Shown: positions 2,638 to 33,971 of the stretch, one piece after another
How the letters are laid out: every line of letters starts with the position of its first letter
How positions within the stretch are numbered: position 1 is the first letter of the stretch
Program-made: the position numbers and the translations under genes
The notes under the pieces: model-generated
The model's input: the letters and a program-made list of their open reading frames with translations, nothing else
What the model was told of the DNA's origin: nothing
The model's database searches: none
Source of the DNA: a virus
Taxonomy: Duplodnaviria; Caudoviricetes
IMG/VR virus record: IMGVR_UViG_3300028146_000004
Coordinates: 1 to 52,226 of that record
Direction: 5' to 3' (one strand)
DNA length: 52,226 nucleotides

Positions 2638-4116
2638 TTAACGTGTAACTATGCTCAGGTCTGACGAGGAGAAGTACGAATCGTTGCTGCCGAACGCATT
2701 GGCTGCTGCGCTCTGCAGCTCGTCTGCAGTGTAAATCTCGCTCAGCTTGTGACCTGCGCCAAGCTTGAAGAGCATCATGAACGCGTAGCGGATCGCGTCG
2801 AGGGCGTGGTCGTCGTACTTCTGAGCATCTTCCCGTACATTGCGAAGAACACGTCCCGCTGCTGAAGGGGCACGGTAGTTGTTGAACTCCCGGATCGTGT
2901 TACGGCAGCTTGGATCGATGTAGAGCCACGGCTGCTCGATAGGAGTACCGTACTCGTCTGAGACACCCGTTTGCCGAAGCTGAAGGTACGACTTAACCAG
3001 CTCGACGCCTTCGCGCCATCCACTTTGTGCACTGTGCCGCCCCATGGATTGATCTGTAATCTTCGCCGTGCCAGACTTGGATCGTGGGTCTGCATAGCAC
3101 GGCGCAAGCTTGGTAGAGACCGTCAGCACTGATTCAGGCGAAGCTGCGTCGCCGAATGCGAGGTCAATCTTGTAACCGTCTGGCTGTGGGCGATTCTTGA
3201 GGATGGCGATGTGCTCCTCAAGCATCTTGCCACCCTCGTAGTGCTCTCGCCAAACGTACACCTGCCCCCAGGGGCTGATCTGGAACTCGATGCACGCCAA
3301 GGGGTTCGTGAAGCCCCAGTCAAATGCCATGTAATTCGGCCAGTCTGGGCGGTACTTGTGCTGCTTGACGTGGATTACTTCCTGAAACTCGTCGTAGATC
3401 TTGCCTATGAAGGCGTTAAAGAGAGCTGCAATCTCCTGATCGAAGAACGCCGGGAGGACCGTTGCCTTGATGAGCGCGATCTCAGGATCATCCTTGCCAA
3501 GAGGATAGACGTATGGGTTATCCCAGCTAGGAAACTGCCAAGAAGCGTAGTCTCGATACACCTCGTCGGGCGACTGGCCCCATGCCCAGAGGTTGTATAG
3601 CCAGTTGAAACCCTCCGGTGTAGTAGGAAATGTCGCCCACCCTCGCTCATCAGCGAGGGCAGGTCGAATAAAACGCTCCCACGTGTCAGCACGGTGCTTT
3701 GCCGCCTCTGACATGATTGCCCCGTTGAGCTTCTCACCAACCAGGTTCTCTGGGTGGTCCGCACTTCGACACTCAACACGAGTTTGCCAGGGGAATTCAA
3801 TGAACATCTCCCCGCTACGACGGGAATACGCCTTCTTGACGCGCTTGTCTCTGCCCAGCTTCTGCCCGATGATCAAGTCGTCCCAGATGACCCGGAACTC
3901 CTTCTCGGAGAGGTCGTAGGTAGGTCCGACGATCCAGAAGCGCTTCTTCGGCAGGAAGAGTTCGGAACCGAGGTCCCGTGCCGCCATGTGGCTCTTTCCG
4001 AACCGACGACCGCAGCACGGGACCCGGAAACGCTTTCCCGAAGCATGGAACAATGCCTGCTTCGGGTGCGGCTTGTACCCGACCAGGTCAAAGTAGTTCT
4101 GCTTCGACAGCGTCAT
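2638..4116 (-). CDS. terL: Terminase large subunit
   Basis: Walker A GRRFGKS, TTPEG-NW coupling motif, nuclease motifs DWGF and DDHALDAIRY. Confidence 0.95.
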   Translation of the reverse strand: MTLSKQNYFDLVGYKPHPKQALFHASGKRFRVPCCGRRFGKSHMAARDLGSELFLPKKRFWIVGPTYDLSEKEFRVIWDDLIIGQKLGRDKRVKKAYSRRSGEMFIEFPWQTRVECRSADHPENLVGEKLNGAIMSEAAKHRADTWERFIRPALADERGWATFPTTPEGFNWLYNLWAWGQSPDEVYRDYASWQFPSWDNPYVYPLGKDDPEIALIKATVLPAFFDQEIAALFNAFIGKIYDEFQEVIHVKQHKYRPDWPNYMAFDWGFTNPLACIEFQISPWGQVYVWREHYEGGKMLEEHIAILKNRPQPDGYKIDLAFGDAASPESVLTVSTKLAPCYADPRSKSGTAKITDQSMGRHSAQSGWREGVELVKSYLQLRQTGVSDEYGTPIEQPWLYIDPSCRNTIREFNNYRAPSAAGRVLRNVREDAQKYDDHALDAIRYAFMMLFKLGAGHKLSEIYTADELQSAAANAFGSNDSYFSSSDLSIVTR

Positions 4117-7877: not shown

Positions 7878-8129
7878 ATGGCTAGGGAGATCTACCAGGT
7901 TCACCCGTTCACGGTGCGCCCACTGCTACGGCGTCACGCGAAGCGTGATGTCCAGTTCCAGATGGAACGCCTTGAGCGAGAGGGCCAGATCGAGCCGGTG
8001 TGCGTCAAGCCACCGGTGATGGGCCAGTACGAGATGGATGTAGACCATCCTGACTACTTCTACTGGTCCCCCGAGATCGTGGAGGCCGCGGTACGGCTAG
8101 GTTGGGAGACCATCCTGGTGACGTACTAA
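7878..8129 (+). CDS. Hypothetical protein
   Basis: GAAAGGAGG RBS; followed by a terminator. Confidence 0.7.
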   Translation: MAREIYQVHPFTVRPLLRRHAKRDVQFQMERLEREGQIEPVCVKPPVMGQYEMDVDHPDYFYWSPEIVEAAVRLGWETILVTY

Positions 8130-8134
8130 AAGAG

Positions 8135-8166
8135 AGCCCCCGGTGAAAGCCGGGGGCTTTTCTTTT
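8135..8166 (+). terminator. Intrinsic terminator
   Basis: AGCCCCCGG-TGAAAG-CCGGGGGCT followed by a T tract. Confidence 0.85.
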
Positions 8167-8700
8167 GCCCCCAAAGGGGTCCAAAATTCGGCGCAAACCT
8201 CGCTCCACGCCCCGCTCGGGCCATCGGATCTAAGGTGAAACGTCTTTATCCCCAAAGGGGGCCAAAAATAGGGCGGCGGGTCGCTCCACTCGGGCCTGGG
8301 CCATCGGGGCAGGGAGCGGTACGGCGGCGAAGGGGGTCCAGCGCCCGGGTCTGGCCCCAAGGGGGCCATTTTTAGGGCGGCACCTGCCTACACGGGGGCC
8401 ACGGGGCATCGGAGCCTAAATCCCACATGCCCATAGGGGTCAGATTGCGGGCCGCAGGGAGCGGGATTTAGGCTCAAAAGTACCGGCGAAGGGGCGGGTA
8501 TCTACCTCCCTATCTATCTCCCGGGAGATAGATATCCCCACCCTCCTTATAAAGCCTAAGTGTTACTGTGTATAGGCGACCACCTCCTCTCTCCTCTCAC
8601 TATATCCTTGTTAATAAACCTATTAGTATTTGGTTATAGATAAAACCAGGGGAGATAGATAGGGAGATATCAACGGGTCGTTTCAAAAGCACGGAACCGA
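8167..8700. other. Non-coding repeat region; candidate replication origin or genome-end region
   Basis: GC-rich degenerate repeats, a perfect 24-bp palindrome at 8511-8534, and a 17-bp inverted repeat (8506-8522/8650-8666) around an AT-rich tract. Confidence 0.5.
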
Positions 8701-8740
8701 GCGACCGGTTTAGACCGATAGATCCTAGAAAATCGACCCC

Positions 8741-8770
8741 TTGTGTTCCAAAGGGGACGTAGTATATAAT
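8741..8770 (+). promoter_or_regulatory. Early promoter TTGTGT-N18-TATAAT
   Basis: Member of the repeated promoter family. Confidence 0.65.
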
Positions 8771-8803
8771 AGAAATAGAGACCTTAGATCCCGGGAGGAA
8801 GAT

Positions 8804-9310: not shown

Positions 9311-9515
9311 GTATGATTGGGACCACTTGTGTTGTGGCGAGACCTTTACCCTGTATACCGGATTTGCAGACGATCCCAGTACGTACTTGGACTGTCACCC
9401 TAGAATGTTTGCCACCATACTAGGTCGGATGGCGAGACGAAGAGGGAAGGAGGTCGAACTTGAATTCCTGGGTACGGGAGACAGCGTAACAGGAATCAGG
9501 TTCCGGTGTGTATAA
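9303..9515 (+). CDS. Hypothetical protein (KYDW motif), probable paralog of the upstream gene's C-terminus
   Basis: Start overlaps the upstream stop; MAKYDWDHL...G. Confidence 0.6.
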   Translation: MAKYDWDHLCCGETFTLYTGFADDPSTYLDCHPRMFATILGRMARRRGKEVELEFLGTGDSVTGIRFRCV

Positions 9516-9548
9516 AAGTGCCCCCAAAGAGCCCCCCAGATTCGCTCC

Positions 9549-9579
9549 TTTTCCACCACATATGGGGCTGGGATATAAT
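9549..9579 (+). promoter_or_regulatory. Early promoter TTTTCC-N19-TATAAT
   Basis: AAAGAGCCCC motif upstream; -35 is weak. Confidence 0.5.
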
Positions 9580-9627
9580 TATTGTATCACCAACAAGGTG
9601 AGGCGATAACTACAGAGAGGCGAGTCG

Positions 9628-9882
9628 GTGGCTAAGAGAGTGGTTAGTCTCGAAGAGATCGAACACCAGATCGAACAGAGGCTAGGTCTCAGTTACACTG
9701 AGGCGATTCGTATGACGAGTATGATGCGACCCTCGTACATGCGAACCAAGCTCGGTAAGCGTCCGGTGGGGAAGAACATTGATGCGGTACTCAAGCGTTC
9801 TCCCGGGTCTAGTACACACAGTGGATTAGACTTCGTCAAGGCAGTATATGCCGAGCGCACTGGTCAGGAGCCGCTGTACTAG
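9628..9882 (+). CDS. Hypothetical protein
   Basis: GAGG RBS; downstream hairpin at 9883-9917. Confidence 0.6.
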   Translation: MAKRVVSLEEIEHQIEQRLGLSYTEAIRMTSMMRPSYMRTKLGKRPVGKNIDAVLKRSPGSSTHSGLDFVKAVYAERTGQEPLY

Positions 9883-9995
9883 AGGCGAGGGGGAGCGAAA
9901 GCTCCCCTTCACCGCCTTTGTAGGTTGCGCACACCTTACAACTTCACACTCTACCTTCGGATCGCGGGGGTTCGACAAGTAGAGAGGAGCCAGTA

Positions 9996-10232
9996 ATGGC
10001 CGCTAAGTTCCACCCACGGGCGATGGCGCAGTTGATCGCGACCATCGTTACGAACCCAGAAGCTCCGGATTACGAAGCGCAGGTCGAGAGGCGGATCGAG
10101 CAAGTAACGGAGTTGGCAGTGGAGTACTACAAGGTGTACCCGATCGAACACAACTGGACCGTGGAGCGAAAGGGTCACACACGGAACAGCCTCAACAACC
10201 GCGCACTACTGTCGAGAGCCAACCTCAGGTAG
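9996..10232 (+). CDS. Hypothetical protein
   Basis: GAGGAG RBS. Confidence 0.65.
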   Translation: MAAKFHPRAMAQLIATIVTNPEAPDYEAQVERRIEQVTELAVEYYKVYPIEHNWTVERKGHTRNSLNNRALLSRANLR

Positions 10233-10327
10233 TGACGCCGCCCCGCAAGGTTTCATCGCCCTGTGGGGTTCTGAAAGTAGCAGGTGCGCTGAACGGGGCT
10301 CTTGAAAGAGCCCGTGTGTCAAGACTC

Positions 10328-10358
10328 TTGCAGACCCCATATGGTGCTGGGGTATAAT
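10328..10358 (+). promoter_or_regulatory. Early promoter TTGCAG-N19-TATAAT
   Basis: Repeated promoter family. Confidence 0.7.
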
Positions 10359-10405
10359 TGAAGTAGAAGCAGGAAGTACTCACAACTACAGAGAGGATCG
10401 AACCC

Positions 10406-10624
10406 ATGAGGATCGAACTTCGAGACGAGGTCGACGTTCACACGATCTGGTTCGCACTCGAGAAGTACTCAGAGGTGCTACTCAAGGATCGTGAGTCGAA
10501 GTACAACGGGGATCCGCGGTACGGCGACGAGGACGAAGAGTTTCTGACGGGAGAGATCGAACAGTGTGGAAACGTGCTCAATCAGCTACGGGAGCAGGGA
10601 TTCGCACCGTTCAAGGGTGAGTGA
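10406..10624 (+). CDS. Small acidic hypothetical protein
   Basis: GAGG RBS, first gene after the promoter. Confidence 0.7.
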   Translation: MRIELRDEVDVHTIWFALEKYSEVLLKDRESKYNGDPRYGDEDEEFLTGEIEQCGNVLNQLREQGFAPFKGE

Positions 10625-10629
10625 CTCAC

Positions 10630-10676
10630 GGAGCCGCCTAGTAGTCGTAGGTATCCTTCAATGGAACGGCTCCACG
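10630..10676 (+). ncRNA. Three-way-junction RNA J1
   Basis: GGAGCCG/CGGCTCC, CCTA/TAGG, TCC-TTCAAT-GGA, then ACG. Confidence 0.7.
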
Positions 10677-10689
10677 AAAGGAGGCTGAC

Positions 10690-10980
10690 ATGATTGTCAT
10701 CCGAAAGTACGAGGTGTCCATCGAGGAGTCGGTGCTCAAGGCTATCGCCGAGGGTACGGTCCCGAACACCACTTCGATCGATCTGTACGACGCCTGCACG
10801 AGGCTGATCGATCTGGGTAACGCCAGTCGACCGCTCTACCTGGTGCAGTTCGACGGCGTCAAGGACCCGCGGTCCACAGCCATCGGCTGGGACTACGAGT
10901 ACGTAGAAGGCGTCGACGAGATGTTGTACGGGCCGATCACGTGGAAGGGTGAGGAGACCGACATCGACCTCGAGAAGTAG
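10690..10980 (+). CDS. Hypothetical protein
   Basis: GAAAGGAGG RBS. Confidence 0.7.
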   Translation: MIVIRKYEVSIEESVLKAIAEGTVPNTTSIDLYDACTRLIDLGNASRPLYLVQFDGVKDPRSTAIGWDYEYVEGVDEMLYGPITWKGEETDIDLEK

Positions 10981-10988
10981 GCCTCGTA

Positions 10989-11035
10989 CGGGGCGGCCAG
11001 GATATTGCTGGTAGGGTTCAATCCCACCGCTCCAC
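10989..11035 (+). ncRNA. Three-way-junction RNA J2
   Basis: GGGCGG/CCGCTC, CCAG/CTGG, GGG-TTCAAT-CCC, then ACG; stems covary with J1. Confidence 0.7.
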
Positions 11036-11050
11036 GAAAGGAGGCGAGTC

Positions 11051-11251
11051 ATGATAGACTTGTCGAAGTACTCGGAGCCAGGCGAGTGTGGATACTGTGA
11101 GAAGCCGGCCGTACTCAACGCGGTAGCTCTCCAGGTATGCCAGGACGAGCACGGTGAGGAGCATACCTTCACCGAGGCCGTCTGCGAGGAGTGTCGTGGC
11201 GAGCTCGAACGCGATACGGGCCTCGGCGGCATGTTCATCCTGCACTGGTGA
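11051..11251 (+). CDS. Small Zn-finger protein (CxxC...CxxC)
   Basis: GAAAGGAGG RBS; CGYC and CEEC. Confidence 0.7.
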   Translation: MIDLSKYSEPGECGYCEKPAVLNAVALQVCQDEHGEEHTFTEAVCEECRGELERDTGLGGMFILHW

Positions 11252-11256
11252 CGAGA

Positions 11257-11303
11257 GGGTCCGCCGGGTTGTTGACGGTATCCTTCGATGGAACGGGCCC
11301 GCA
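11257..11303 (+). ncRNA. Three-way-junction RNA J3
   Basis: GGGTCCG/CGGGCCC, CCG/CGG, TCC-TTCGAT-GGA; 44-nt core as in J1 and J2. Confidence 0.65.
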
Positions 11304-11336
11304 AAAGAGCCCCAAAGAGCACCCGGTTCAAGACTC

Positions 11337-11366
11337 TTGTAGTCGAAGAGGGTGCTCGAGTATAAT
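11337..11366 (+). promoter_or_regulatory. Early promoter TTGTAG-N18-TATAAT
   Basis: Repeated promoter family. Confidence 0.7.
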
Positions 11367-11389
11367 TAGTAGTAGAGAGGAGGTCAACG

Positions 11390-11593
11390 ATGAAGATCGT
11401 GACCATGTGCATAGCGCACGGAGTAGCACTCGAGGGCGAGCCGATGCTGGTTCGTCCGCCAGCCGCGGTGGAACTGAAGGACAACGACGCGAGTTCCTGG
11501 GAGGTAGACACTTCCGAGCAGGTGTGTCCGACAGCCGCCAACAACGGACTGTACTGGTGCAACGCAACGTGGGCTGTGTGCGTCGTTCAGTAG
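11390..11593 (+). CDS. Hypothetical protein
   Basis: AGGAGG RBS; C-x2-H...C...C pattern similar to 12229..12447. Confidence 0.65.
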   Translation: MKIVTMCIAHGVALEGEPMLVRPPAAVELKDNDASSWEVDTSEQVCPTAANNGLYWCNATWAVCVVQ

Positions 11594-11647
11594 AACGACC
11601 GCCTGTAGTGGTGTCAGAGCCACTACAGGTACGGAAGGAGGTACACC

Positions 11648-11863
11648 ATGATCGACGTGGTGGTTGTAGTCTCTGTTCCTGCAACAGAGAAGCTCGAGCC
11701 GGGTTCGGGAGCGCTCCTCAGTCGCGACCGGATGGTGGAGGACGAACCTGCCTACACTCAGGTGTTCCGGTTCGAGTTCGAGGACGATCGGGCGCTGCAA
11801 GCTTCGTTGGCGTGGCTGGGCAACCAGGCAGTCAGCGGAGGGCCGATGATCAACACCGCGTGA
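11648..11863 (+). CDS. Hypothetical protein
   Basis: AAGGAGG RBS. Confidence 0.65.
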   Translation: MIDVVVVVSVPATEKLEPGSGALLSRDRMVEDEPAYTQVFRFEFEDDRALQASLAWLGNQAVSGGPMINTA

Positions 11864-12048
11864 AGCCCCGCAAGCTTCTCGTGTCAGGCCACGAGGGGTG
11901 CAAGCTCGAGTACACAAACACCTCAATAGAGACCGGAGCGCGCTGCTACTGGTGCCCATTCCACAACGAGTGGGTCTTCGTGTTTCCGGTCGCTAAGGTG
12001 TATCACTACTACGACGGGACAGTAACAGTGTTCCAAATGCCTGGGTAG
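11860..12048 (+). CDS. Small Cys/His-containing hypothetical protein
   Basis: GTGA overlap with the upstream stop; the 3' end of track ORF 11191..12048. Confidence 0.55.
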   Translation: MKPRKLLVSGHEGCKLEYTNTSIETGARCYWCPFHNEWVFVFPVAKVYHYYDGTVTVFQMPG

Positions 12049-12228
12049 TGAGGCCTCGAAGGCCGTCGAAAGCCTTCGAGGCGCTTGACCGTTGAAGGAA
12101 CGAACATCTTAGGGCCCCCTAAGAAGAAACGGTCAGTAAGGAGGGTCTCGTGAGGCGTACTCTTGTCTTTGCGTGGAGTGGGCCAAAGGAGTGCGAGGAG
12201 ACCAGGAAGTTGCTAGAGGAGGTAGAAC

Positions 12229-12447
12229 GTGAAGAGGGTACGAGTGGTGGCTCAGTGCGCGCAACACCCCGACTCCGTAGTGTACCTACGAGACGGAGCG
12301 ATGACACTGATCGGGGAGGACAACACGTGGACTCACGAAGGTAGCCAGATGGCTGTCATGGTCGAGTTCGATGCTGGCTTCCTCGAGTGTTCCGAGAACT
12401 ACGCCGACCACGAGCTCTCGTTCCACGTCTCTGAACTCCGACAGTAA
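12229..12447 (+). CDS. Hypothetical protein
   Basis: GAGGAGG RBS. Confidence 0.65.
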   Translation: MKRVRVVAQCAQHPDSVVYLRDGAMTLIGEDNTWTHEGSQMAVMVEFDAGFLECSENYADHELSFHVSELRQ

Positions 12448-12531
12448 CCTGCTGAGTCGTTGACAGGCGCAAGTCTGTCAGCGGCTCTGTGGGTTGCTAA
12501 GAGTAGGCGACCCTCAGGCAAGGAGGGTACC

Positions 12532-12918
12532 ATGTCGAATGAGTTCTACCTGACTGCACCGTGCGTCGGTAAGCGTAGCTGCGGTGCGCGGGTCGGGGAG
12601 AAGTGCGTCGACAAGCGTGGAAACGTTCTGCCGCCGTCGCAGTCACACAAGGCGCGGAAGGACGAGTACGAGCACCGCCAGGCCGCCGAGAGCGCAACGG
12701 CAACGTTGCAGTCGCTCGAGCCGGTCGTCGACGAGGAGAGGGCTCGCAAGGTCTTCTACGAGGAGCGGCGACAGGGGAAGATCGCGAACGTTCTCTTCGC
12801 GATCCGATTCGGCCGGGAGGTCATGCACATGCCTCAGGCGCAGCTCGACCAGCGACTGGCCGAGATGATGGTCGACGGTGGCTACGACAGGGCCCTCGAC
12901 CGCCTGCAGCCAGAGTAG
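12532..12918 (+). CDS. Phage zinc-finger protein
   Basis: AGGAGG RBS; C...CGA-VGE-C...H-AR motif. Confidence 0.7.
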   Translation: MSNEFYLTAPCVGKRSCGARVGEKCVDKRGNVLPPSQSHKARKDEYEHRQAAESATATLQSLEPVVDEERARKVFYEERRQGKIANVLFAIRFGREVMHMPQAQLDQRLAEMMVDGGYDRALDRLQPE

Positions 12919-12924
12919 TACAGA

Positions 12925-12969
12925 GGGTTGGTCGGCATAGGCCGTACGCAGCAAAGCAGCCAACCCGCG
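12925..12969 (+). ncRNA. Three-way-junction RNA J4
   Basis: GGGTTGGT/GCCAACCC, CGGC/GCCG, TAC, GC/GC, A, then GCG. Confidence 0.55.
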
Positions 12970-12983
12970 AAAGGAGGTACGAG

Positions 12984-13292
12984 ATGTCACTCGCACCTGG
13001 AAAGGGAGCACACCTGGTGCTCAACGAGGCAGTCATGAGCTGGCTCTCTGCGGCGCTCTCGGACGTGCGATCCGTCTACACGGACGAGCTACACGACGAG
13101 ACACCGGAGAAGGTCATCACGGGGCTGCTGGCGGAGGGCGGTAGGTCGTTGCCGTGGGCGTCGGAGAAGGACACCTTCGGCAACAAGGCGTACACGAGCA
13201 TGGTGTACAAGGAGGGTGAGCTGCGGGTGACCGTAGTTCACAACAAGCGGGGCCTCAGCCTCGACATCCGCGAGTGGTTCCAGCCCAGCTGA
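12984..13292 (+). CDS. Protein with a C-terminal PC4-like ssDNA-binding motif
   Basis: GAAAGGAGG RBS; ends ELRVTVV...GLSLDIREWF. Confidence 0.55.
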   Translation: MSLAPGKGAHLVLNEAVMSWLSAALSDVRSVYTDELHDETPEKVITGLLAEGGRSLPWASEKDTFGNKAYTSMVYKEGELRVTVVHNKRGLSLDIREWFQPS

Positions 13293-13348
13293 GCACGTTG
13301 GCACATCTTCGGGGGAGGTGTGCCTCCGTGTCTAGCTTAGGAGGAGCA

Positions 13349-13594
13349 ATGGCAAGCAATGAGGAGGCCTGGTACAAGTTCGCGATCCTGGCTGGGAACG
13401 AGGTGAGAATCGTCGAGGACCTAAACGACGACATCGCCGGCCACGTCCAGAAAGCGTTCCAGAAGTACGGCAACAGTCAGCTCCCGATGGTGAAGCTGGA
13501 AGGTGACCATGCCTTCACGTCGGCGATCTCTGACCGAAACCGGCACATCCAGATGGCGATCATGTACTCCAACATGGCCATCATGTACAAGTGA
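13349..13594 (+). CDS. Hypothetical protein
   Basis: AGGAGGAG RBS. Confidence 0.7.
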   Translation: MASNEEAWYKFAILAGNEVRIVEDLNDDIAGHVQKAFQKYGNSQLPMVKLEGDHAFTSAISDRNRHIQMAIMYSNMAIMYK

Positions 13595-13609
13595 CACCAA
13601 AGGGCCCCC

Positions 13610-13640
13610 TTGTAGTCCAAAGGGGGCACCGGGTGATAAT
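13610..13640 (+). promoter_or_regulatory. Early promoter TTGTAG-N19-GATAAT
   Basis: Repeated promoter family. Confidence 0.6.
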
Positions 13641-13662
13641 GGGATAGAAGGGAGGTAATGCA

Positions 13663-13824
13663 ATGCACCGAGTCGAAGATAGGGTCGGCATCATGGAGAT
13701 GTGGAAGACTCCTTGGCGCAAGAGGTTCTTCCGTCGTGCGAAGCACCGCTACAGCATGTGGCAGGCTACGTGGGATATACTAGTCAACGTTGGTATATCC
13801 GGGTATACAGCACCAGTACTGTAG
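13663..13824 (+). CDS. 53-aa basic hypothetical protein
   Basis: Below the ORF-track cutoff; GGAGGT RBS; MHRVEDRVG...TAPVL. Confidence 0.55.
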   Translation: MHRVEDRVGIMEMWKTPWRKRFFRRAKHRYSMWQATWDILVNVGISGYTAPVL

Positions 13825-13884
13825 CAATCCCCACAGGGCGGCGACAAAGAGGTGGCGCATTATCAACGATCCCTAACTAAATAC

Positions 13885-13951
13885 GTCCCGGTAGCACTGG
13901 CAGTGCGCGGTTGGAAGATACCGAGCGAGGGTTCGATTCCCTACCGGGGCA
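13885..13951 (+). ncRNA. tRNA-like element T1 with an aberrant anticodon arm
   Basis: GTCCCGG/CCGGGGC acceptor, GCAC-TGGCA-GTGC D arm, TTCGATT T loop; 4-bp stem with an 8-nt loop. Confidence 0.7.
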
Positions 13952-13978
13952 CGGAAAGAAATGCACCAAAGAGCCCCC

Positions 13979-14009
13979 TTGCAGTCGAGGTTTGGGGCTC
14001 CTGTATAAT
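13979..14009 (+). promoter_or_regulatory. Early promoter TTGCAG-N19-TATAAT
   Basis: Repeated promoter family. Confidence 0.7.
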
Positions 14010-14207
14010 TGAAGTAGAGCGAGAGGTATGGCTAAGGAGGTGGTAGCCATGCGGGCGATCAATAAAGCGCCCTGGCGGTAACAAGCCTCAATCGTTTCGT
14101 GTCACCTGTACCACCTTACAATTGAATCGTGGCCAAGTATCGGCAGAGACATTCCGGGGGAGCCCACGTTATGAGCGTGCGGACGGGATGTGGTGCTTGG
14201 CCACCTA

Positions 14208-14283
14208 GGGGATGTAGCTCATGGAGAGCACTACCGGTAATCGCCGCCGCTTTAGTTCGCAGGTTCGATCCCTGCCATCCCCA
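14208..14283 (+). ncRNA. tRNA-like element T2
   Basis: GGGGATG/CATCCCC, TA-GCTC-ATGGA-GAGC, GCAGG-TTCGATC-CCTGC; anticodon arm replaced by a 25-nt irregular stem. Confidence 0.75.
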
Positions 14284-14314
14284 CGTAAAGTCCATCCGTC
14301 AGGAGGGAACAGCA

Positions 14315-14686
14315 ATGAAGGTAGTACAGTACGACACGGTCCGAATCGTACGCGAGTGGGTCCCGGTCGAGGACATCGAAGATGGTGTGACGCCGGAGCT
14401 CCACGTGCGTACGGTTGTCGAGCAGACGGACGAGGAGCGGTGGATATCCATCATCGACCACGTCGCGGACCACGCGCCCGACTCGCTCGTCACGACCGTC
14501 GTCGTGTACGACGATGAAGGCAAGGCCATCGTCCAGGGCTCCGTCAAGAGCACTCCGGGGCAGATCCGGGCAGAGATGTTCACCGACGCTTCACTCGTGC
14601 CGAACGTGAAGGACGGCGAGCTGTCCTTCACGGATCCGACCGAGGAGACCGTCGGGCAGTACGCGCTTCGGGTGACCGGGGCGTAG
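14315..14686 (+). CDS. Acidic hypothetical protein between tRNA-like elements
   Basis: AGGAGG RBS before ATG 14315. Confidence 0.7.
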   Translation: MKVVQYDTVRIVREWVPVEDIEDGVTPELHVRTVVEQTDEERWISIIDHVADHAPDSLVTTVVVYDDEGKAIVQGSVKSTPGQIRAEMFTDASLVPNVKDGELSFTDPTEETVGQYALRVTGA

Positions 14687-14694
14687 GCATCACA

Positions 14695-14770
14695 GCGCTA
14701 GGCCGCCGTTAGGCGGACGCCCTGCCAACCTGGGTGATTGGAAGTGCGGGTTCGAATCCCGTCTAGCGCG
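14695..14770 (+). ncRNA. tRNA-like element T3 (Gly-GCC-like loop remnant)
   Basis: GCGCTAG/CTAGCGC, GCGGG-TTCGAAT-CCCGT; 9-nt loop TGCCAACCT. Confidence 0.7.
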
Positions 14771-14824
14771 CGTACGACAACTTAACACCGCAGCCTGGTG
14801 CATGACTCCACCATCGAGGCTGCA

Positions 14825-14905
14825 GGCTCTAGTGCTCCCGATAGGGTTGCCGCCTTTCTTAGCGGGGTACAACGGAAGTGTAGGTTCGAATCCTACCTAG
14901 AGCCG
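14825..14905 (+). ncRNA. tRNA-like element T4
   Basis: GGCTCTAG/CTAGAGCC (8 bp), GTAGG-TTCGAAT-CCTAC; CCGC-CTTTCTTA-GCGG with an 8-nt loop. Confidence 0.7.
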
Positions 14906-14956
14906 CGTACAGGGGGTCCCTCCGAAAGAGCCCCCGAAAATCTTCAATGAGCCCCC

Positions 14957-14987
14957 TTGCAGTCCAAGCTGCGGGGTGTGGTATAAT
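14957..14987 (+). promoter_or_regulatory. Early promoter TTGCAG-N19-TATAAT
   Basis: Repeated promoter family. Confidence 0.7.
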
Positions 14988-15030
14988 TGAAGTAAGCAAG
15001 CAGCAGCGTCAACCAAACTAGGAGGGTATC

Positions 15031-15558
15031 ATGACGCAGGCAACGACCACCCCCGATTTCGAGGATGCCGCCCAGACCGAGGCTCCGACCACGGACGCTC
15101 TGGACCTCGAGGTCAACGACGACGCCAACCTGGACGTCGACGTCCCCAGCGCAGAGGACGGCGACGTGCTCCCCACGGAGGGCGAGGGAACCAAGGCGGA
15201 GTCGGCGCCGGCGAAGGCCGCGCGTCCGAAGGCTCCCGAGGGCTTCGTGAAGCCCGTCGAGTTCGCCAAGCTCCTGTCGGAACACCTGAAGAAGGTCGTT
15301 CCGCCGCAGGTCGTCTACTCGTACATCAAGAACAACCAGGGCGAGTCGGCGAAGAACCCGTTCCCGGTCCACGCGCAGGACGGGTACGACTGGTACATCA
15401 AGCCGGAGGAGGGTCTGGCGTGGTGGGACGCGAAGAACTCGCGTGTCGCCGCTGGCAAGACCGCTCGGGCCGAGAAGGCGGCGAAGGCCGCTGCCAAGGC
15501 GACCGAGGCTCCGACGGTGGAGGCTGAGTCCGCCGCGCCTGTGGAGGAAGCCGAGTAG
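15031..15558 (+). CDS. Putative DNA-binding protein: acidic N-terminus, central HTH-like domain, Ala/Lys-rich tail
   Basis: AGGAGG RBS; KPVEFAKLL...PPQVVYSYIKN resembles 6827..7177. Confidence 0.7.
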   Translation: MTQATTTPDFEDAAQTEAPTTDALDLEVNDDANLDVDVPSAEDGDVLPTEGEGTKAESAPAKAARPKAPEGFVKPVEFAKLLSEHLKKVVPPQVVYSYIKNNQGESAKNPFPVHAQDGYDWYIKPEEGLAWWDAKNSRVAAGKTARAEKAAKAAAKATEAPTVEAESAAPVEEAE

Positions 15559-15575
15559 CAGTCGGGGTTCGAGCA

Positions 15576-15621
15576 GGGCAGGTCCCGAAAGGGGTACGCC
15601 GTCGTAGGCAGCCTGTCCACG
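15576..15621 (+). ncRNA. Three-way-junction RNA J5
   Basis: GGGCAGGT/GCCTGTCC, CCC-GAAA-GGG, TAC, GCC/GGC, A, then ACG. Confidence 0.6.
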
Positions 15622-15740
15622 AGCACAGGCAAGTAGAGTGAACGAGGCCGTCACTGGCGATGCCGATGGGCGGATAGTAACGATGCTTGCCTGTGCCCCT
15701 GTTCAAGAGCAAACTTCGCTACACGAGTCAGGAGTAGGCA

Positions 15741-15917
15741 ATGACAAGCGACACGAAGACCATCGTCGGCGCTCTCGCGGGTTACTTCAACGAGGGGGGC
15801 GGGAAGCGGCCGCTGGCCGACTTCCAGAAGGAGATCAAGGCTCTGACCGACGCCGAGAAGCAGGAGCTCGCCGAGGGCGCCTGCAAGGTCATGGGATGGA
15901 CTCTCAAGACCGCATAA
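15741..15917 (+). CDS. 58-aa hypothetical protein
   Basis: Below the ORF-track cutoff; AGGAG RBS; MTSDTKTIVG...WTLKTA. Confidence 0.7.
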   Translation: MTSDTKTIVGALAGYFNEGGGKRPLADFQKEIKALTDAEKQELAEGACKVMGWTLKTA

Positions 15918-15972
15918 CGACATAGGCCGCGCTCGCCGGCCCAACCGGATTAGTCCTCCGGAGCGAGCACAA

Positions 15973-16043
15973 GCCCTTGTGCATCTGGCGATGCTCCTCC
16001 GAAGGAGGAAATACTAGCCCAGGTTCGATTCCTGGCATGGGCG
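15973..16043 (+). ncRNA. tRNA-like element T5
   Basis: GCCCTTG/CATGGGC, GCATC-TGGC-GATGC, CCTCC-GAA-GGAGG (3-nt loop), CCAGG-TTCGATT-CCTGG. Confidence 0.7.
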
Positions 16044-16144
16044 CGGGCGCTCTGGAGAAGCGCCTACGTTAAACGCATGGCCGGGCGCCCTGCCAAAGTG
16101 GTGTAAGTTGGTCCTTCCCCACTTGTTAGGCTCGGCCATGCCAA

Positions 16145-16239
16145 GGGGAGTGACGGAAAGGCGAGACGTTTGCGGTGGCGGGTGCAGTGTCGGCCCGATG
16201 CTCAACCACCAGTGTGAGGTTCGATTCCTCACCTCCCCA
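16145..16239 (+). ncRNA. tRNA-like element T6 with an elongated anticodon arm
   Basis: GGGGAG/CTCCCC, ACG/CGT D arm, GGTGG...CCACC extended arm, GTGAGG-TTCGATT-CCTCAC. Confidence 0.7.
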
Positions 16240-16265
16240 CGCAATGACAGCACTAGGAGGGTGTT

Positions 16266-16811
16266 ATGACAGACGCAGACGGCGTGGATTGGCCGCGAAT
16301 CGAAAAGTTGGTCCTATCCAGCTACACGAAGCGTGGCGCGCAGGCTACGTTTGCTCTGATGTACGGACTCAAGGAGGGTAAAGTGACAGACGCTGACAAG
16401 CTCCTCGCAATGGAGCTTCAGGCCAGGCAGGCACAGGCGGAGCTGCTCGAGAAGCGGACGATCGCGGACCAGCTGCGGGAGTCCCTTCTGCCGATGCAGT
16501 ACGACAGCTCCGTCATCCGGTTCAAGAAGCAGTTCGAAGTTGACGGCAAGCAGTACGCCTACGCCGCCATCTTCGCAGGCGGGCGTTGGTACATCACCGG
16601 CGGCGCCGGCAGTCGTTCCAGCTACGACCTCGACCAGCTGATCCTGTTCCTCGCCTCGGGCAAGGTTCCGACGCGGTACGTGACCAAGATGGTCGAGAGC
16701 CACAGCAACGTGGCAAGCATCACCAAGACGCCGCAGGTCGACGTACGGTACGACAAAGAGCTCCGAATTCCTCTGATCAAGGACGAGTTCACCCAGGAGC
16801 CACCCTTCTAG
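16266..16811 (+). CDS. Hypothetical protein
   Basis: AGGAGG RBS; 181 aa. Confidence 0.75.
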   Translation: MTDADGVDWPRIEKLVLSSYTKRGAQATFALMYGLKEGKVTDADKLLAMELQARQAQAELLEKRTIADQLRESLLPMQYDSSVIRFKKQFEVDGKQYAYAAIFAGGRWYITGGAGSRSSYDLDQLILFLASGKVPTRYVTKMVESHSNVASITKTPQVDVRYDKELRIPLIKDEFTQEPPF

Positions 16812-16963: not shown

Positions 16964-17060
16964 TTTGCCCTCAAAACGATCTTGATCGACCGTGACACTC
17001 CAGGCCCTGTGGGATTTCCCGCTACACGGCCCGTGTGTTACACCTCTATAAATAGCCCCC

Positions 17061-17091
17061 TTGCGGTCCAACGATTCTCCCGGTATATAAT
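17061..17091 (+). promoter_or_regulatory. Promoter TTGCGG-N19-TATAAT
   Basis: Repeated promoter family; heads the replication region. Confidence 0.7.
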
Positions 17092-17107
17092 AGAAGGAGG
17101 AGGGAAG

Positions 17108-30817: not shown

Positions 30818-31569
30818 GGGCTGCACTGATTCCGCCGATGGGAGCTGAGTACTCCGCACTCAGCTCCGACATTCACCTTGTCCTGCCACTCAAGGAGTGT
30901 CGAGACAATCCCGACTACCTCGCAGCGTACCGTCACGCATGGCGTCGAGGTGACTACCTCATCCTCGACAACGGCTGCGCCGAAGGCAAGATCGTCGACA
31001 ATCGAGTACTAATCCAATTCGCGAGAACGATTAACGCTCACGAGGTCGTAGCGCCTGATGTGATGGGCGACGGACCTCTTACACTTCGTCGTACGGTCGA
31101 GTTCGTTCGGTACGTACCCGAAGCTCGTAACTACTCGATCATGGGTGTTCTTCAAGGTGAGAACATCCAACAAGTCCTACGACTCGCTGAGGCATTTGCT
31201 CAGCTACCCACCATCACTGCAGTTGGCATTCCGAAGATTCTCGTGTCAACAATTGACCATGAGGTACGCGCTCGCGTAGCAGCGAACATCCTCAAGGTCT
31301 ACGGCAACCGCTTCGAGATCCACCTGCTCGGTCTCAATAGAGACTTCCAGACAGAAATGCTGGACGTTACGTTCCCTCCTGAGATCCGATCGATGGACTC
31401 AGCGCAACCGTACAAGTTCACCGAAGCTGGCATCGCCATGACGGCCGTCAACGTAACAGGCCGTGGCGAGCTAACAAGGCGTCGGCACGACTACTTCAAA
31501 GCGCCACGCAAGTACGACGCCGGCCTACTAGCTTCGAACATCGAGACGTTTATGAGTTGGTGCCGATGA
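30814..31569 (+). CDS. TGT-fold guanine transglycosylase, DpdA-like
   Basis: LDNG, PDV, VLQG, HLLG and SMDS match the order of TGT active-site motifs; next to folE/que genes. Confidence 0.7.
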   Translation: MRAALIPPMGAEYSALSSDIHLVLPLKECRDNPDYLAAYRHAWRRGDYLILDNGCAEGKIVDNRVLIQFARTINAHEVVAPDVMGDGPLTLRRTVEFVRYVPEARNYSIMGVLQGENIQQVLRLAEAFAQLPTITAVGIPKILVSTIDHEVRARVAANILKVYGNRFEIHLLGLNRDFQTEMLDVTFPPEIRSMDSAQPYKFTEAGIAMTAVNVTGRGELTRRRHDYFKAPRKYDAGLLASNIETFMSWCR

Positions 31570-33971
31570 AGGCTGAAGCGTCCGGCGCTGACTGTCAGCA
31601 CTGCCCGCTGCGAGACGCCGGGTATGCCCCAACCAAACGCCCACAGGGAGGGCGGCCTCTTTCCAATGGCGAACGAAAGATAGTAATCGTTGGAGAAGCT
31701 CCAGGGTTCGTTGAGACGCAATTCGGTTCGCCCTTCTCGGGACCCTCAGGCAAGCTCCTCAACACCGTACTCAAGTACCAAGGCATCGAACGCAAGGAAG
31801 TGATGCTGACCAATGCATGCCTATGTAGGCCTCCGGATAACGCTACTCCTCCTAAAGCGGCGGTGGTTGCGTGTAAGACTCGTCTCGCGAACGAGATCCG
31901 ACAATTCGCAGGCGATGACGCAGTCGACGTTATTGCTCTTGGCGGGACCGCGGGAACGCTACTGGTGGACGATCCGGGGACAATTACCACGCTACGTGTC
32001 GGTCCTCCAAGGAAGCCCGCCGCGTGGCTTGCGCGTAGCTGGGGAGATGCTTCTGTACAACCTGATGTGCGAGTTATCCCTACCTGGCACCCCGCGTACT
32101 GTCTCCGTAACGCTGACGCGTTCCCGTCCCTCGTTAGCGACATTGGTAAGGTAAGGGAGACCAGCCGTGAGCCTTGGCGTGAACCTGAGTGGAGAATATT
32201 TGACGATCCGGATCGAGCGGTTGCCGTCATCGCTGAGCTGGAGCGAATTGAAGGCCCTCTCGTCATCGACATTGAAGTCGGTTTTGACAAGGACGAGGCC
32301 TTCGACCATCCGAACAACTATTCTCTTCTCTGCGTGGGAATTGCTTTTGCAAGAGGACAGGCAGTGGTTCTGGGTGAGCGTGCACTTGCCGACGACGACG
32401 TGGTCGATGGACTGCGGCGACTCCTACGAAGCCACCGACTCATCGGACACAACGGCAAGTTTGACCTTGCCGGACTTTGGCCAAAGCTCGGAAGCCTCGA
32501 ACTCTGGTTCGACACCATGCTCGCCAGCTATGTCCTCGATGAGCGGCCTGGCCAGCACGGTCTTAAAGTTCTTGCCGTCGAGAAACTAGGAGCTCCGAAG
32601 TACGATGAGGAAATTCGAAAGTACGTGCCTCGCCGAGGAAATTATGGAGATATTCCTCGGCCAATCCTCTACCGGTATAACGCGTACGACGTTGCATGCA
32701 CATGGGAGTTGTACGAGCTGTTCACTGAAAGCATGCATCGACAAGGGCTCCGGGGAGTCCATGACTTTTTGGTCAAAGCAGCCAACCAGCTCATGTACCT
32801 CGAGCTCAATGGGATTGCAATTGACAGAGAGTATATGCGCCGACTCGAGTCCGAATACCTCGAACGGCTCAACGAGATCGAGGTGGAACTGGACCAGATT
32901 GTTAAGGAGTCGACAGGTCATCTAGACGACGGTCCAATGCAGCACATCAACCCGCGTTCACCGGCGCAGGTGAAACTCTACCTGGAGACACAAGGTGTTA
33001 ACGTTCAGTCTACGAACCAGGAAACACTCGAGTTCCTGCTCGAGCGACTGCCTAAGGGGAGTGCCAAACAGCGTTTTGTATCAGTTCTTCTTCGGTACAG
33101 ACGCCAACACAAGCTCTACAGTACATACATCGTTGGAATCCGCAAACGGCTTTACCGCGGACGTATTTACACTACTTACCTTCTCCACGGAACGACAAGC
33201 GGCCGACTGGCAAGTCGGAATCCGAATCTGCAGAACATTGTTCGTGATAAGGAGATCCGACGGCAGTTTGGTGTCACACACCCTGACCACGTACTGATCC
33301 AGTGCGACTACAAACAGGCCGAGGCTCGCGTCATGGCTACGCTCTCTCAGGATGAATACCTAAGAGAGATCCTAAGCCGTAACGAGGAGGGCTACGACTT
33401 CTTCAACGAGCTATCCGATCAGCTATACGGAGTTGGTCAATGGGGTAAAGAGGAGCGCATCAGGACGAAGGCGTTCTTCTACGGCATCGGCTACGGCCGA
33501 GAAGCGTACTCGATCGGGCTCGAGTACGGCCTTGACCCTCGTGAAGCGCAACGACGATACGACGAGTTCGTCGGGCTCATCCCGAACGTTGTCAAATGGC
33601 AAGAGGCTATACGTAGCCAAGTTCTGAGGGGAGAACCTCTTGTCTCACCCTTCGGACGACGCAGACGGTTCTGGCTCATCACCGACCAGAACAAAAAAGA
33701 TGTCCTTAACGAAGCGTTGTCCTATCTGCCGCAATCAACTGCAAGTGACATCTGCCTATCCGCTCTTATTCGCGTGCGACCCTTGCTACGTGGTTTGGGT
33801 TTCCTTCGACTCACAATTCACGATGCTCTCGTTGTTGAGTGTCATGGAGACCGTACCGAGGAAGTGGGACAGCTACTTAGTACGACCATGGCAGCCGAAG
33901 GTCGACACTTTACCGACTATGTTCCTTTCCCAGTAGACATCAGCATCGGCAAGAGTTGGGGAGATCTGTGA
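31566..33971 (+). CDS. Family A DNA polymerase with an N-terminal family-4 uracil-DNA-glycosylase domain and a 3'-5' exonuclease
   Basis: CxxCPL, GEAPG, TN-CLCRP, HPAY; DIE, HNGKFD, YNAYD; DYKQAE, R---K---YG, IHD. Confidence 0.92.
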   Translation: MKAEASGADCQHCPLRDAGYAPTKRPQGGRPLSNGERKIVIVGEAPGFVETQFGSPFSGPSGKLLNTVLKYQGIERKEVMLTNACLCRPPDNATPPKAAVVACKTRLANEIRQFAGDDAVDVIALGGTAGTLLVDDPGTITTLRVGPPRKPAAWLARSWGDASVQPDVRVIPTWHPAYCLRNADAFPSLVSDIGKVRETSREPWREPEWRIFDDPDRAVAVIAELERIEGPLVIDIEVGFDKDEAFDHPNNYSLLCVGIAFARGQAVVLGERALADDDVVDGLRRLLRSHRLIGHNGKFDLAGLWPKLGSLELWFDTMLASYVLDERPGQHGLKVLAVEKLGAPKYDEEIRKYVPRRGNYGDIPRPILYRYNAYDVACTWELYELFTESMHRQGLRGVHDFLVKAANQLMYLELNGIAIDREYMRRLESEYLERLNEIEVELDQIVKESTGHLDDGPMQHINPRSPAQVKLYLETQGVNVQSTNQETLEFLLERLPKGSAKQRFVSVLLRYRRQHKLYSTYIVGIRKRLYRGRIYTTYLLHGTTSGRLASRNPNLQNIVRDKEIRRQFGVTHPDHVLIQCDYKQAEARVMATLSQDEYLREILSRNEEGYDFFNELSDQLYGVGQWGKEERIRTKAFFYGIGYGREAYSIGLEYGLDPREAQRRYDEFVGLIPNVVKWQEAIRSQVLRGEPLVSPFGRRRRFWLITDQNKKDVLNEALSYLPQSTASDICLSALIRVRPLLRGLGFLRLTIHDALVVECHGDRTEEVGQLLSTTMAAEGRHFTDYVPFPVDISIGKSWGDL

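Follow-up and report, generated by a model that had tools for sequence, protein, structure and literature searches.

A family of about 44-nucleotide three-way-junction RNAs in the gaps between small phage genes, and its incomplete likeness to tRNA

Mitochondrial transcripts are punctuated by tRNAs, and the t-elements of plant mitochondria and the mascRNA of MALAT1 are tRNA-like folds that serve in processing. A minihelix consisting of the acceptor stem and the T-arm is the minimal model substrate of RNase P and of the CCA-adding enzyme. Other structured elements are found in the early genes of phage T7, which are provided with RNase III processing hairpins, and in E. coli operons, which carry REP (repetitive extragenic palindromic) stabilisers. 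Here we describe J, a repeated structured element of about 44 nucleotides (nt), present five times between small genes of the IMG/VR virus record IMGVR_UViG_3300028146_000004 (Duplodnaviria; Caudoviricetes). This record is one complete genome of an uncultivated siphovirus, with direct terminal repeats, and it was analyzed over its full length of 52,226 bp, hereafter referred to as the window. Repeats located between phage genes have been reported before: the start-associated and extended start-associated sequences (SAS and ESAS) are conserved intergenic repeats lying directly upstream of ribosome-binding sites in Cluster K mycobacteriophages and in Cluster EF Microbacterium phages, and the parts of these reports consulted here give their function as not known (PMC3203893, PMC7302621). 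The same parts describe ESAS either as 17-bp inverted repeats or as a motif centred on GTAGAG, and link them to a conserved 13-mer resembling a Shine-Dalgarno sequence (PMC3203893, PMC7302621). Moreover, it has been suggested that bacterial hammerhead and twister ribozymes take part in processing polycistronic transcripts, and what they do near phage genes is described as undefined in the portion of that work drawn on here (PMC6765202).

Fold, covariation and membership of the J family

The analysis relied on three covariance models: R1, built from the first three elements of the window (J1-J3), R2, built from 12 copies, and R3, built from 29 copies that come mostly from other phages. E-values quoted for these models are rough, as their calibration was shortened. 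The elements in the window share one layout, in which a closing stem (P1) encloses a hairpin (P2), an unpaired UA, a second hairpin (P3) and a single unpaired A that precedes the returning strand (P1'):

J1, 10630..10673, + strand: P1 of 7 bp, P2 of 4 bp with a 7-nt loop, UA, P3 of 3 bp with the loop UUCAAU, A, P1'
J2, 10990..11033, + strand: the layout of J1, with P3 GGG/CCC and P2 CCAG/CUGG; 56.7 bits with R3
J3, 11257..11300, + strand: the layout of J1, with the loop UUCGAU and one G-A mismatch in P2; 50.7 bits with R3
J4, 12925..12966, + strand: a shorter P2 loop, and the P3 loop AGCAAA as opposed to AUCGAA in its positional counterparts
J5, 15576..15618, + strand: a subtype with the P3 loop GUCGUA; tail ACG

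For J1, J3, J4 and J5 these are the coordinates of the original prediction, a note made from the letters of the window without database searches; the J2 element and its fold are real as well, but had been placed one base off (10989-11032). The three-way junction which that note had drawn is the unconstrained minimum free energy fold of each of the five elements, at -16.4 to -20.8 kcal/mol.

The fold is supported by compensatory changes. Whole-stem exchanges had been pointed out between copies, namely P3 UCC/GGA against GGG/CCC and P2 CCUA/UAGG against CCAG/CUGG, and both are indeed present. J1-J3 alone show two-sided changes in 8 of the 14 pairs, with 41 of 42 cells paired, while sliding the 3' partners by one to three columns leaves only 29-55% of the cells paired. 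In 29 distinct copies every one of the 14 modelled pairs changes on both sides, and standard pairs occupy 99.0% of 385 cells, as compared to 60.9% after shuffling and 24-52% with slid partners; this share is inflated, because the 29-copy alignment was fitted to the model, but the MAFFT alignment of J1-J3, which was not fitted to any model, displays the same covariation pattern. Variation sits in the stems, with P2 as the variable arm (3-6 bp, with loops of 4 to more than 20 nt), whereas the conserved parts are the UA at the junction, replaced by UG in some copies, the U-C-R core of the P3 loop (R being a purine), the single A before P1' and the tail that follows P1'. The length of P1 is 7-8 bp in 27 of 32 copies. 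In addition, about 20 cells of the 29-copy alignment are G-U pairs that would turn into A-C mismatches on the opposite strand, and opposite-strand scores stay at noise level with both R1 and R3, which indicates that it is the sense strand, equivalent to the mRNA, that folds.

Membership of J4 and J5 required models reaching beyond the window. R1 scores J1-J3 at 65-68 bits (67.7 bits for J1, which scores 50.0 bits with R3), with E of about 1e-13, far above chance. With R1 in the window alone, J4 and J5 rank fourth and fifth over both strands, at E 0.75 and 1.2, and they could not be accepted on topology, since the bare topology, a 7-bp closing stem with two hairpins, is common by chance: a blind scan of the window returned 61 cases on the + strand and 49 on the - strand. 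Either element reaches significance only when the model also contains copies from other phages. J4 reaches 26.6 bits (E 0.002) with R2 and J5 36.1 bits (E 1.3e-5) with R3, each being outside the training set of the respective model, and R3 run over the window with filters off returns exactly J1-J5 at E<0.5. Counterparts of J4 with near-identical P1 were found in the phages G001, G002, G006 and G008, all of them with the loop AUCGAA, and the one in G006 is immediately preceded by the homologue of the same 128-aa gene. The loop GUCGUA and the layout of J5 recur in two G008 copies (L176:2192 and L176:4660). Based on these model scores and on the counterparts in relatives, all five elements are members of one family with three loop subtypes, and the proposal that J4 and J5 share the topology of J1-J3 with other loops therefore stands.

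The search for further copies, which the original prediction had called for in the form of a covariance model run on phage genomes, combined exact-pattern scans with subsequent models, and the 32 copies referred to throughout are those so found; extra loci were added by way of a conserved 175-aa early protein and by way of a second pattern. The pattern of bases invariant in J1-J3 hit 12 viral loci, with true copies in two phages: G006, a syntenic 53-kb relative of the window with protein identities of 30-77%, and G007, an unrelated 109-kb phage that has only three weak protein matches in common with the window. R3 then retrieved 27 copies at E<=0.1 in 414 kb of related sequence, distributed over eight other viral contigs: seven each in G006 and G008, six in G002, two each in L181 and G007, and one each in G001, L177 and L187. 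At the same threshold R3 found no J in G003, G004, G005, L175, L178 or L186. Less was gained by the other scans. More than 114 loci in viral contigs matched a first, loose pattern, and none of the 80 on which R1 was run proved real. R1 also found nothing in five relatives chosen by polymerase similarity, because this model is too sequence-specific; the later models did find copies in G001 and G002. An 18-nt pattern representing one subtype matched 67 loci in 185,579 bacterial and archaeal genomes, none resembling the family, and the five of these that passed a loose P1-pairing test are about what chance would give. When J2 and its Shine-Dalgarno sequence (SD) were compared with GenBank phages by BLAST, the matches, in 5 records, were no longer than 21 nt and of the kind expected by chance. 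As a family of about 44-nt structured RNAs, J belongs to two lineages with almost no proteins in common: a clade of uncultivated siphoviruses on the one hand and, on the other, at least one unrelated phage.

No J element matches any Rfam 15 family, either at the gathering score or at E<=10. The literature was searched by titles and the openings of abstracts, and at that depth neither tRNA-like punctuation nor a J motif is described in phages; among the matches listed for 'tRNA punctuation' together with 'phage', only organelle transcription appears. To the extent covered by Rfam 15 and these titles and abstract openings, the motif is undescribed, as had been suspected.

Gaps between genes and the structures that occupy them

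All copies lie on the coding strand. Each of the 30 copies examined for position starts 4-30 nt past the same-strand stop codon of an open reading frame (ORF) of at least 53 codons, and 26 of them do so within 4-11 nt. An SD is located no more than 6 nt past the tail in 17 of the 30 (by a loose pattern, one case being doubtful); in copies lacking a nearby SD, hairpins, promoter-like sites or longer spacers come next. The base preceding P1 is A in 19 of 32 copies. J is anchored to the end of the upstream cistron, and it often, though not always, abuts the next ribosome-binding site.

In the window, J1 starts 5 nt past the stop codon at 10622-10624 and is followed by the tail ACG (10674-10676), AAAGGAGG (10677-10684) and an ATG at 10690. 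J2 starts 9 nt past the stop codon at 10978-10980 and is followed by ACG, AAAGGAGG (11037-11044) and ATG 11051, and J4 starts 6 nt past the stop codon at 12916-12918 and is followed by GCG, AAAGGAGG (12970-12977) and ATG 12984. These are the three elements that had been expected to stand directly before AAAGGAGG. J3, in turn, starts 5 nt past the stop codon at 11249-11251, and after its tail, GCA, come a hairpin and a promoter-like site (TTGTAG ... TATAAT), with no SD; J5 starts 17 nt past the stop codon at 15556-15558 and is followed by a long-range hairpin, not by an SD. An RCG tail was thus correctly assigned to four of the five elements, J3 being the exception.

Three known ribozymes and one ribozyme candidate occupy equivalent gaps in two of the other phages that carry J:

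Pistol ribozymes of G007 (G007:91845-92476): L170:7846-7914, 8118-8184 and 8409-8477; 62-70 bits, against a threshold of 34.5
Hammerhead type II candidate of G008: L176:3727-3788; 30.4 bits, with the core CUGANGA, GAAA and GUC intact

The G007 pistol ribozymes fill three consecutive gaps, from just past the stop codon to just before the next SD, and belong to the same gene run as the J copies of that phage, J lying within 1.1-1.7 kb of them. This run comprises about 30 small genes with gaps of 70-105 nt, and each gap begins with a pistol ribozyme, a J copy (two by model and one more by eye), a junction of J layout with a full T-arm, or a plain minihelix. The junctions of the third kind carry full T-arms of 5-6 bp with 7-nt T-loops, and they represent intermediates that link J to the tRNA-like minihelices. 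At least 15 T-arm motifs were counted on the coding strand of G007 between 93 and 107 kb, and none of the T-arm elements of this phage scores as a tRNA at E<=1. Across G007:92600-108450 (L170:8628-19001 and L257), about 20 gaps open with a minihelix or a J-like junction ending in GCAC, which would amount to an array-like punctuation of a whole operon. In those gaps a second conserved hairpin, of the CCCCGAAAT...GGGG type, comes next, followed by the conserved SD-like GGAAAGGGGA. As for the G008 hammerhead candidate, it fills its gap exactly, from the stop codon at 3724-3726 to the next SD, and lies one gene downstream of a J copy, within about 330 nt; the gene that precedes it is homologous to the window's gene 12984-13292.

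Other gaps of the window contain unrelated and very stable plain hairpins, ending 1-5 nt before the SD:

Plain-hairpin gaps of the window: 11594-11647, 12085-12140, 12448-12531 and 13293-13348

Structure ahead of the ribosome-binding site appears, therefore, to be general in this operon, as gaps without J carry plain hairpins too. A separate observation concerns gene order, which differs at J sites between G006 (L167:2993-3473) and the window (12925-12966). In G006, the counterpart of J4 is separated from the homologue of the window gene next after J4 by a segment of about 440 nt, which contains a homologue of the window's 72-aa gene (10406-10624) and, behind it, a J. This arrangement suggests that gene cassettes may move with J elements or at them.

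Likeness to tRNA, proposed function and rival explanations

The prediction had seen in J a minimal tRNA mimic with a T-loop, and several features make it look tRNA-like: the length of P1, the U-C-R loop, the purine-C tail and the full-T-arm forms of G007. P1 corresponds to an acceptor-like stem, that is, 7 bp beginning with G1, and in 25 of 29 alignment rows it opens with a G-C or G-U pair. The P3 loop reads N-U-C-R-W; by sequence its positions 2-4 are conserved, with U-C-R kept in 31 of 32 copies (counted by eye), and positions 1 and 5 vary (U/A, A/A or G/U). In a T-loop motif proper, five nucleotides form a U-turn-like loop in which positions 1 and 5 pair and a gap receives an intercalating base. 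A single unpaired A separates P3 from P1, and P1 is followed by a purine and then C. The RCG tail (ACG or GCG) is present in 22 of 32 copies, those of G007 having GCAC instead; it shares the purine and the first C with RCCA, but it is not CCA. A discriminator followed by CCA is what RNase P contacts, and a trailer without CCA marks the substrates of RNase Z. A full T-arm, namely a 5-bp stem with a 7-nt loop U-U-C-R-A-N-N in a stack of about 12 bp, is lacking in J. J would echo the top half of a tRNA, as a miniature mimic whose likeness is incomplete. The P2 loop was considered as an anticodon loop and rejected, as position 33 is not a conserved U and the loop length varies. No tRNA match to J was obtained at E<=1 over the whole window.

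Larger tRNA-like elements, T1-T6, are located in the same region:

T1, 13885..13951, + strand: 25.0 bits and E 0.083 with the Rfam tRNA model (RF00005), below the Rfam threshold; A and then CGG follow
T2, 14208..14284, + strand: 44.8 bits with RF00005, the sole one above threshold; CGU and then an SD follow
T3, 14695..14770, + strand: 23.2 bits with RF00005; 8 nt past the stop codon at 14684-14686; tail GCG
T4, 14825..14904, + strand: 23.1 bits and E 0.45 with the tRNA-Sec model; GCG follows
T5 (weak), 15973..16042, + strand: acceptor-like stem and T-arm, 18.5 bits and E 7.2 with the tRNA-Sec model; G and then CGG follow
T6 (weak), 16145..16238, + strand: 6 of 7 acceptor pairs, T-arm at 16216-16230, identified by script and fold; A and then CGC with an SD follow

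ARAGORN called only 14208-14284 in the window, and reported this element, T2, which has an enlarged anticodon region, as 'tRNA-???' with a four-base anticodon. T1-T6 look like non-decoding tRNA mimics rather than working tRNAs. They have the purine-CG tail and the type of gap of the J elements, and the link drawn earlier between J and T is supported to that extent. Moreover, the best match of R3 in the window other than a J is T3 (14.9 bits, E 0.59), with acceptor stem, T-arm and tail aligned.

Our preferred reading, held tentatively and with slightly less than even confidence, is that J is a mini tRNA mimic that punctuates the mRNA as a cleavage signal for host tRNA-processing enzymes. With its acceptor-like stem of 7-8 bp, usually G-first, its one variable hairpin, its T-loop-like U-C-R arm and a purine-C tail in place of RCCA, J would present the shape of acceptor and T-loop that the tRNA-processing endonucleases of the host recognise. 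RNase P would cut at the 5' edge of P1, leaving an upstream message that ends a few bases past its stop codon and a downstream message capped by a compact fold; instead, or additionally, an RNase Z-like or RNase E-like enzyme may cut at the RCG tail, in which case the fold would stay on the upstream 3' end. From one operon transcript, such cuts would yield a separate message for each gene, with a compactly folded end. The strongest pointer to function, though an indirect one, comes from the other occupants of such gaps: cleavage punctuation is favoured because the self-cleaving ribozymes and the tRNA-like folds found in equivalent gaps both lead to an endonucleolytic cut, and a conserved host factor fits better than a phage factor because the two lineages bearing J share almost no proteins.

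Several points weigh against this proposal. P3 has only 2-4 bp, so that acceptor and T stack add up to about 10 bp rather than 12, and its loop, of 5-7 nt, varies at the first and fifth positions (UUCAAU, AUCGAA, GUCGUA, AGCAAA); J4 has been retained despite the loss of the U from the U-C-R core. The tail is RCG rather than RCCA, and the Rfam tRNA model RF00005 overlaps no J at E<=10 within 9500-16500. The share of paired cells in the 29-copy alignment is, as mentioned, inflated by the fitting. The close relatives G003-G005 do without J (R3, E<=0.1), and many gaps of the window have plain hairpins before the SD, from which it may be that any stable structure suffices. No known ribozyme was found in the window at the gathering score, at E<=10 around J or at E<=1 over the whole window, and the G008 hammerhead candidate lies below its gathering score (30.4 against 37 bits). 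The terminase of the window is closest, at identities of only 34-37%, to those of Arthrobacter, Microbacterium and Gordonia phages, so that an actinobacterial host, and with it an actinobacterial set of RNases, is no more than possible. Finally, we infer the action of J as RNA, the cleavage and the cleaving enzyme alike.

An uncleaved structure acting in cis is a less probable explanation, though one to be taken seriously. J could then be a REP-like shield against 3' exonucleases, a means of keeping the SD single-stranded, an aid to re-initiation from stop to start, or the operator of an RNA-binding protein. The anchoring of its start 4-11 nt past the stop codon in 26 of 30 copies, with a varying distance to the next SD, agrees with this explanation, and so do J3 and J5, which close a gene with no adjacent SD, and the plain stable hairpins that end 1-5 nt before the SD elsewhere in the window. 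However, a mere stabiliser has no need of an invariant junction, a T-loop-like loop, a fixed tail and a constant P1 length, and the gaps that J has in common with pistol and hammerhead ribozymes speak for cleavage. Conserved bases in loop and junction would suit recognition by a protein, yet Pfam offers no candidate among the 20 early proteins (none above threshold, and one weak zinc-finger match as the sole one at E<=0.01), and the J-bearing lineages share almost no proteins. It is improbable, in our estimate, that J is itself a new class of small self-cleaving ribozyme, cutting the operon transcript without any protein. At about 44 nt its scale is similar to that of hammerhead and pistol ribozymes, and some 12-14 of its unpaired bases are invariant within a covarying three-way junction. 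It lies within 1.1-1.7 kb of the pistols of G007 and within about 330 nt of the hammerhead candidate of G008, in equivalent gaps; proximity to known ribozymes is reportedly the route by which twister-sister, pistol and hatchet were found. Against this, the conserved bases are largely explained by the likeness to T-loop and acceptor, minihelices without P2 fill the same gaps in G007, J matches no Rfam ribozyme family, and no cleavage site can be named from its sequence.

Two further explanations place the function elsewhere. The excised J might be the product, a small trans-acting tRNA-like RNA serving, for example, as a decoy for a tRNA-binding enzyme or for a tRNA-targeting defence. The presence of 5-7 copies per genome, early and beside non-decoding tRNA-like elements, and the conservation of the loops while stems are free to vary, would be in agreement with it; a trans-acting product, however, has no need of the strict placement from stop codon to SD, and J has no anticodon-like loop, its P2 loops ranging from 4 to more than 20 nt. 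We consider this rather unlikely, a shade more so than the ribozyme. The last place goes to a DNA-level repeat at cassette boundaries, promoting recombination of small early genes, for which we see very little chance. The cassettes of T4-type phages, each a promoter with a stem-loop, offer a parallel, and both the altered gene order of G006 at J sites and the occurrence of J in an unrelated phage would fit; but compensatory changes, sense-strand G-U pairs and invariant unpaired bases speak for selection on a folded single strand, and the stems differ too much between copies to provide long identity. Two other candidates were rejected, namely J as an intrinsic terminator, there being no U-tract after the elements, and an alternative fold in which the SD would pair with the 3' strand of P1, over no more than 3-4 bp.

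If J elements are cleavage signals, as in the preferred reading of tRNA-like punctuation, the early transcript of these phages would be cut at almost every gene boundary by mutually replaceable modules, comprising mini tRNA mimics, minihelices of acceptor and T-arm, and pistol and hammerhead ribozymes, an arrangement of early gene expression not described for phages. Bacterial viruses would then join organelles as users of tRNA punctuation, and J would define a minimum size of RNA accepted by tRNA-processing enzymes. Phage pistol and hammerhead ribozymes, whose role is called undefined in the part of PMC6765202 consulted, would in that case acquire a concrete and testable one. In a bolder version, to which we give little credence, J would be a new ribozyme class and, together with pistol, hammerhead and minihelices, would form a set of interchangeable cut modules between nearly all early genes; such a set would be a protein-independent phage equivalent of mitochondrial tRNA punctuation. 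A compact element of 44 nt that insulates and processes cistrons would also suit synthetic operons. Whatever its function, J is a well-supported new family of structured RNA, with 32 copies and covariation in 14 of 14 pairs.

The window phage and comparison with known systems

The window has a G+C content of 57.6% and encodes a portal of the Mu/P23-45 type, a tape-measure protein, a tail tube, an SNF2 helicase, a primase-like protein, and a family A DNA polymerase fused to a domain resembling uracil-DNA glycosylase (UDG). The last is a single 804-aa ORF at 31557-33971, with the UDG-like domain at its N-terminus and a 3'-5' exonuclease domain; the closest DNA polymerase among GenBank phages has 29% identity to it. 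A BLAST search of 10400-15800 against GenBank phages gave no match. The J region is a run of small same-strand genes with no assigned function, upstream of the replication genes, and it is from this gene layout that we infer its early expression. Sigma-70-like promoters repeat throughout the run, in the form of a recurring unit made of a C-run, TTGYRG, a spacer of about 17 nt and TATAAT, often inside a hairpin:

Promoter-like units of the window: about 8745-8785, 9560-9590, 10320-10365, 11330-11365, 13605-13640, 13975-14010, 14950-14990 and 17060-17095

These units divide the early region into short transcription units. In addition, a non-coding stretch of 674 nt (8130-8803) has a strong terminator-like hairpin with a U-run at its start (about 8133-8165) and also holds long inverted repeats rich in GATAGATA/TATCTATC, plus several CCCCAAAGGGG units; it could be a replication origin or a regulatory hub.

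When J is compared with the systems described so far, SAS and ESAS are the nearest described phage repeats, as far as the parts of the reports on them consulted here allow a comparison. R2 found no match at E<=10 in Krampusvirus (OQ995427.1), a genus named after the Cluster EF phage Krampus, or in Arthrobacter phage Wollypog (MW055913.1), and the descriptions of SAS and ESAS, so far as consulted, set J apart from them as a branched fold standing before a generic AAAGGAGG. Like the RNase III hairpins of T7 and the REP stabilisers, which set mRNA ends and stability, J is a repeated structured element placed between the cistrons of an early or polycistronic transcript; those are, however, long imperfect hairpins recognised as double-stranded RNA, while J is branched and tRNA-like and has conserved single-stranded bases. 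Like the pistol (RF02679) and hammerhead type II (RF02276) ribozymes, J fills gaps from stop codon to SD among small phage genes, but it has the conserved core of neither and matches no ribozyme model.

The tRNA-like systems offer a further comparison. J resembles mitochondrial punctuation, t-elements and mascRNA in lying between cistrons and in having an acceptor-like stem, a T-loop-like loop and a discriminator-like purine, and differs from them in its size of about 44 nt, its three helices without an anticodon arm, a P3 of 2-4 bp, the RCG tail and its phage origin. It resembles the minihelix in its 7-bp G-first stem, its T-loop-like cap and the purine after the stem; the minihelix is, however, a continuous 12 bp, whereas J has a stack of about 10 bp with an unpaired A, an extra hairpin (P2) and no CCA. 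Processing signals that resemble tRNA are thus known, and what is new here is the minimal three-helix form, the J family itself and the use in phage operons.

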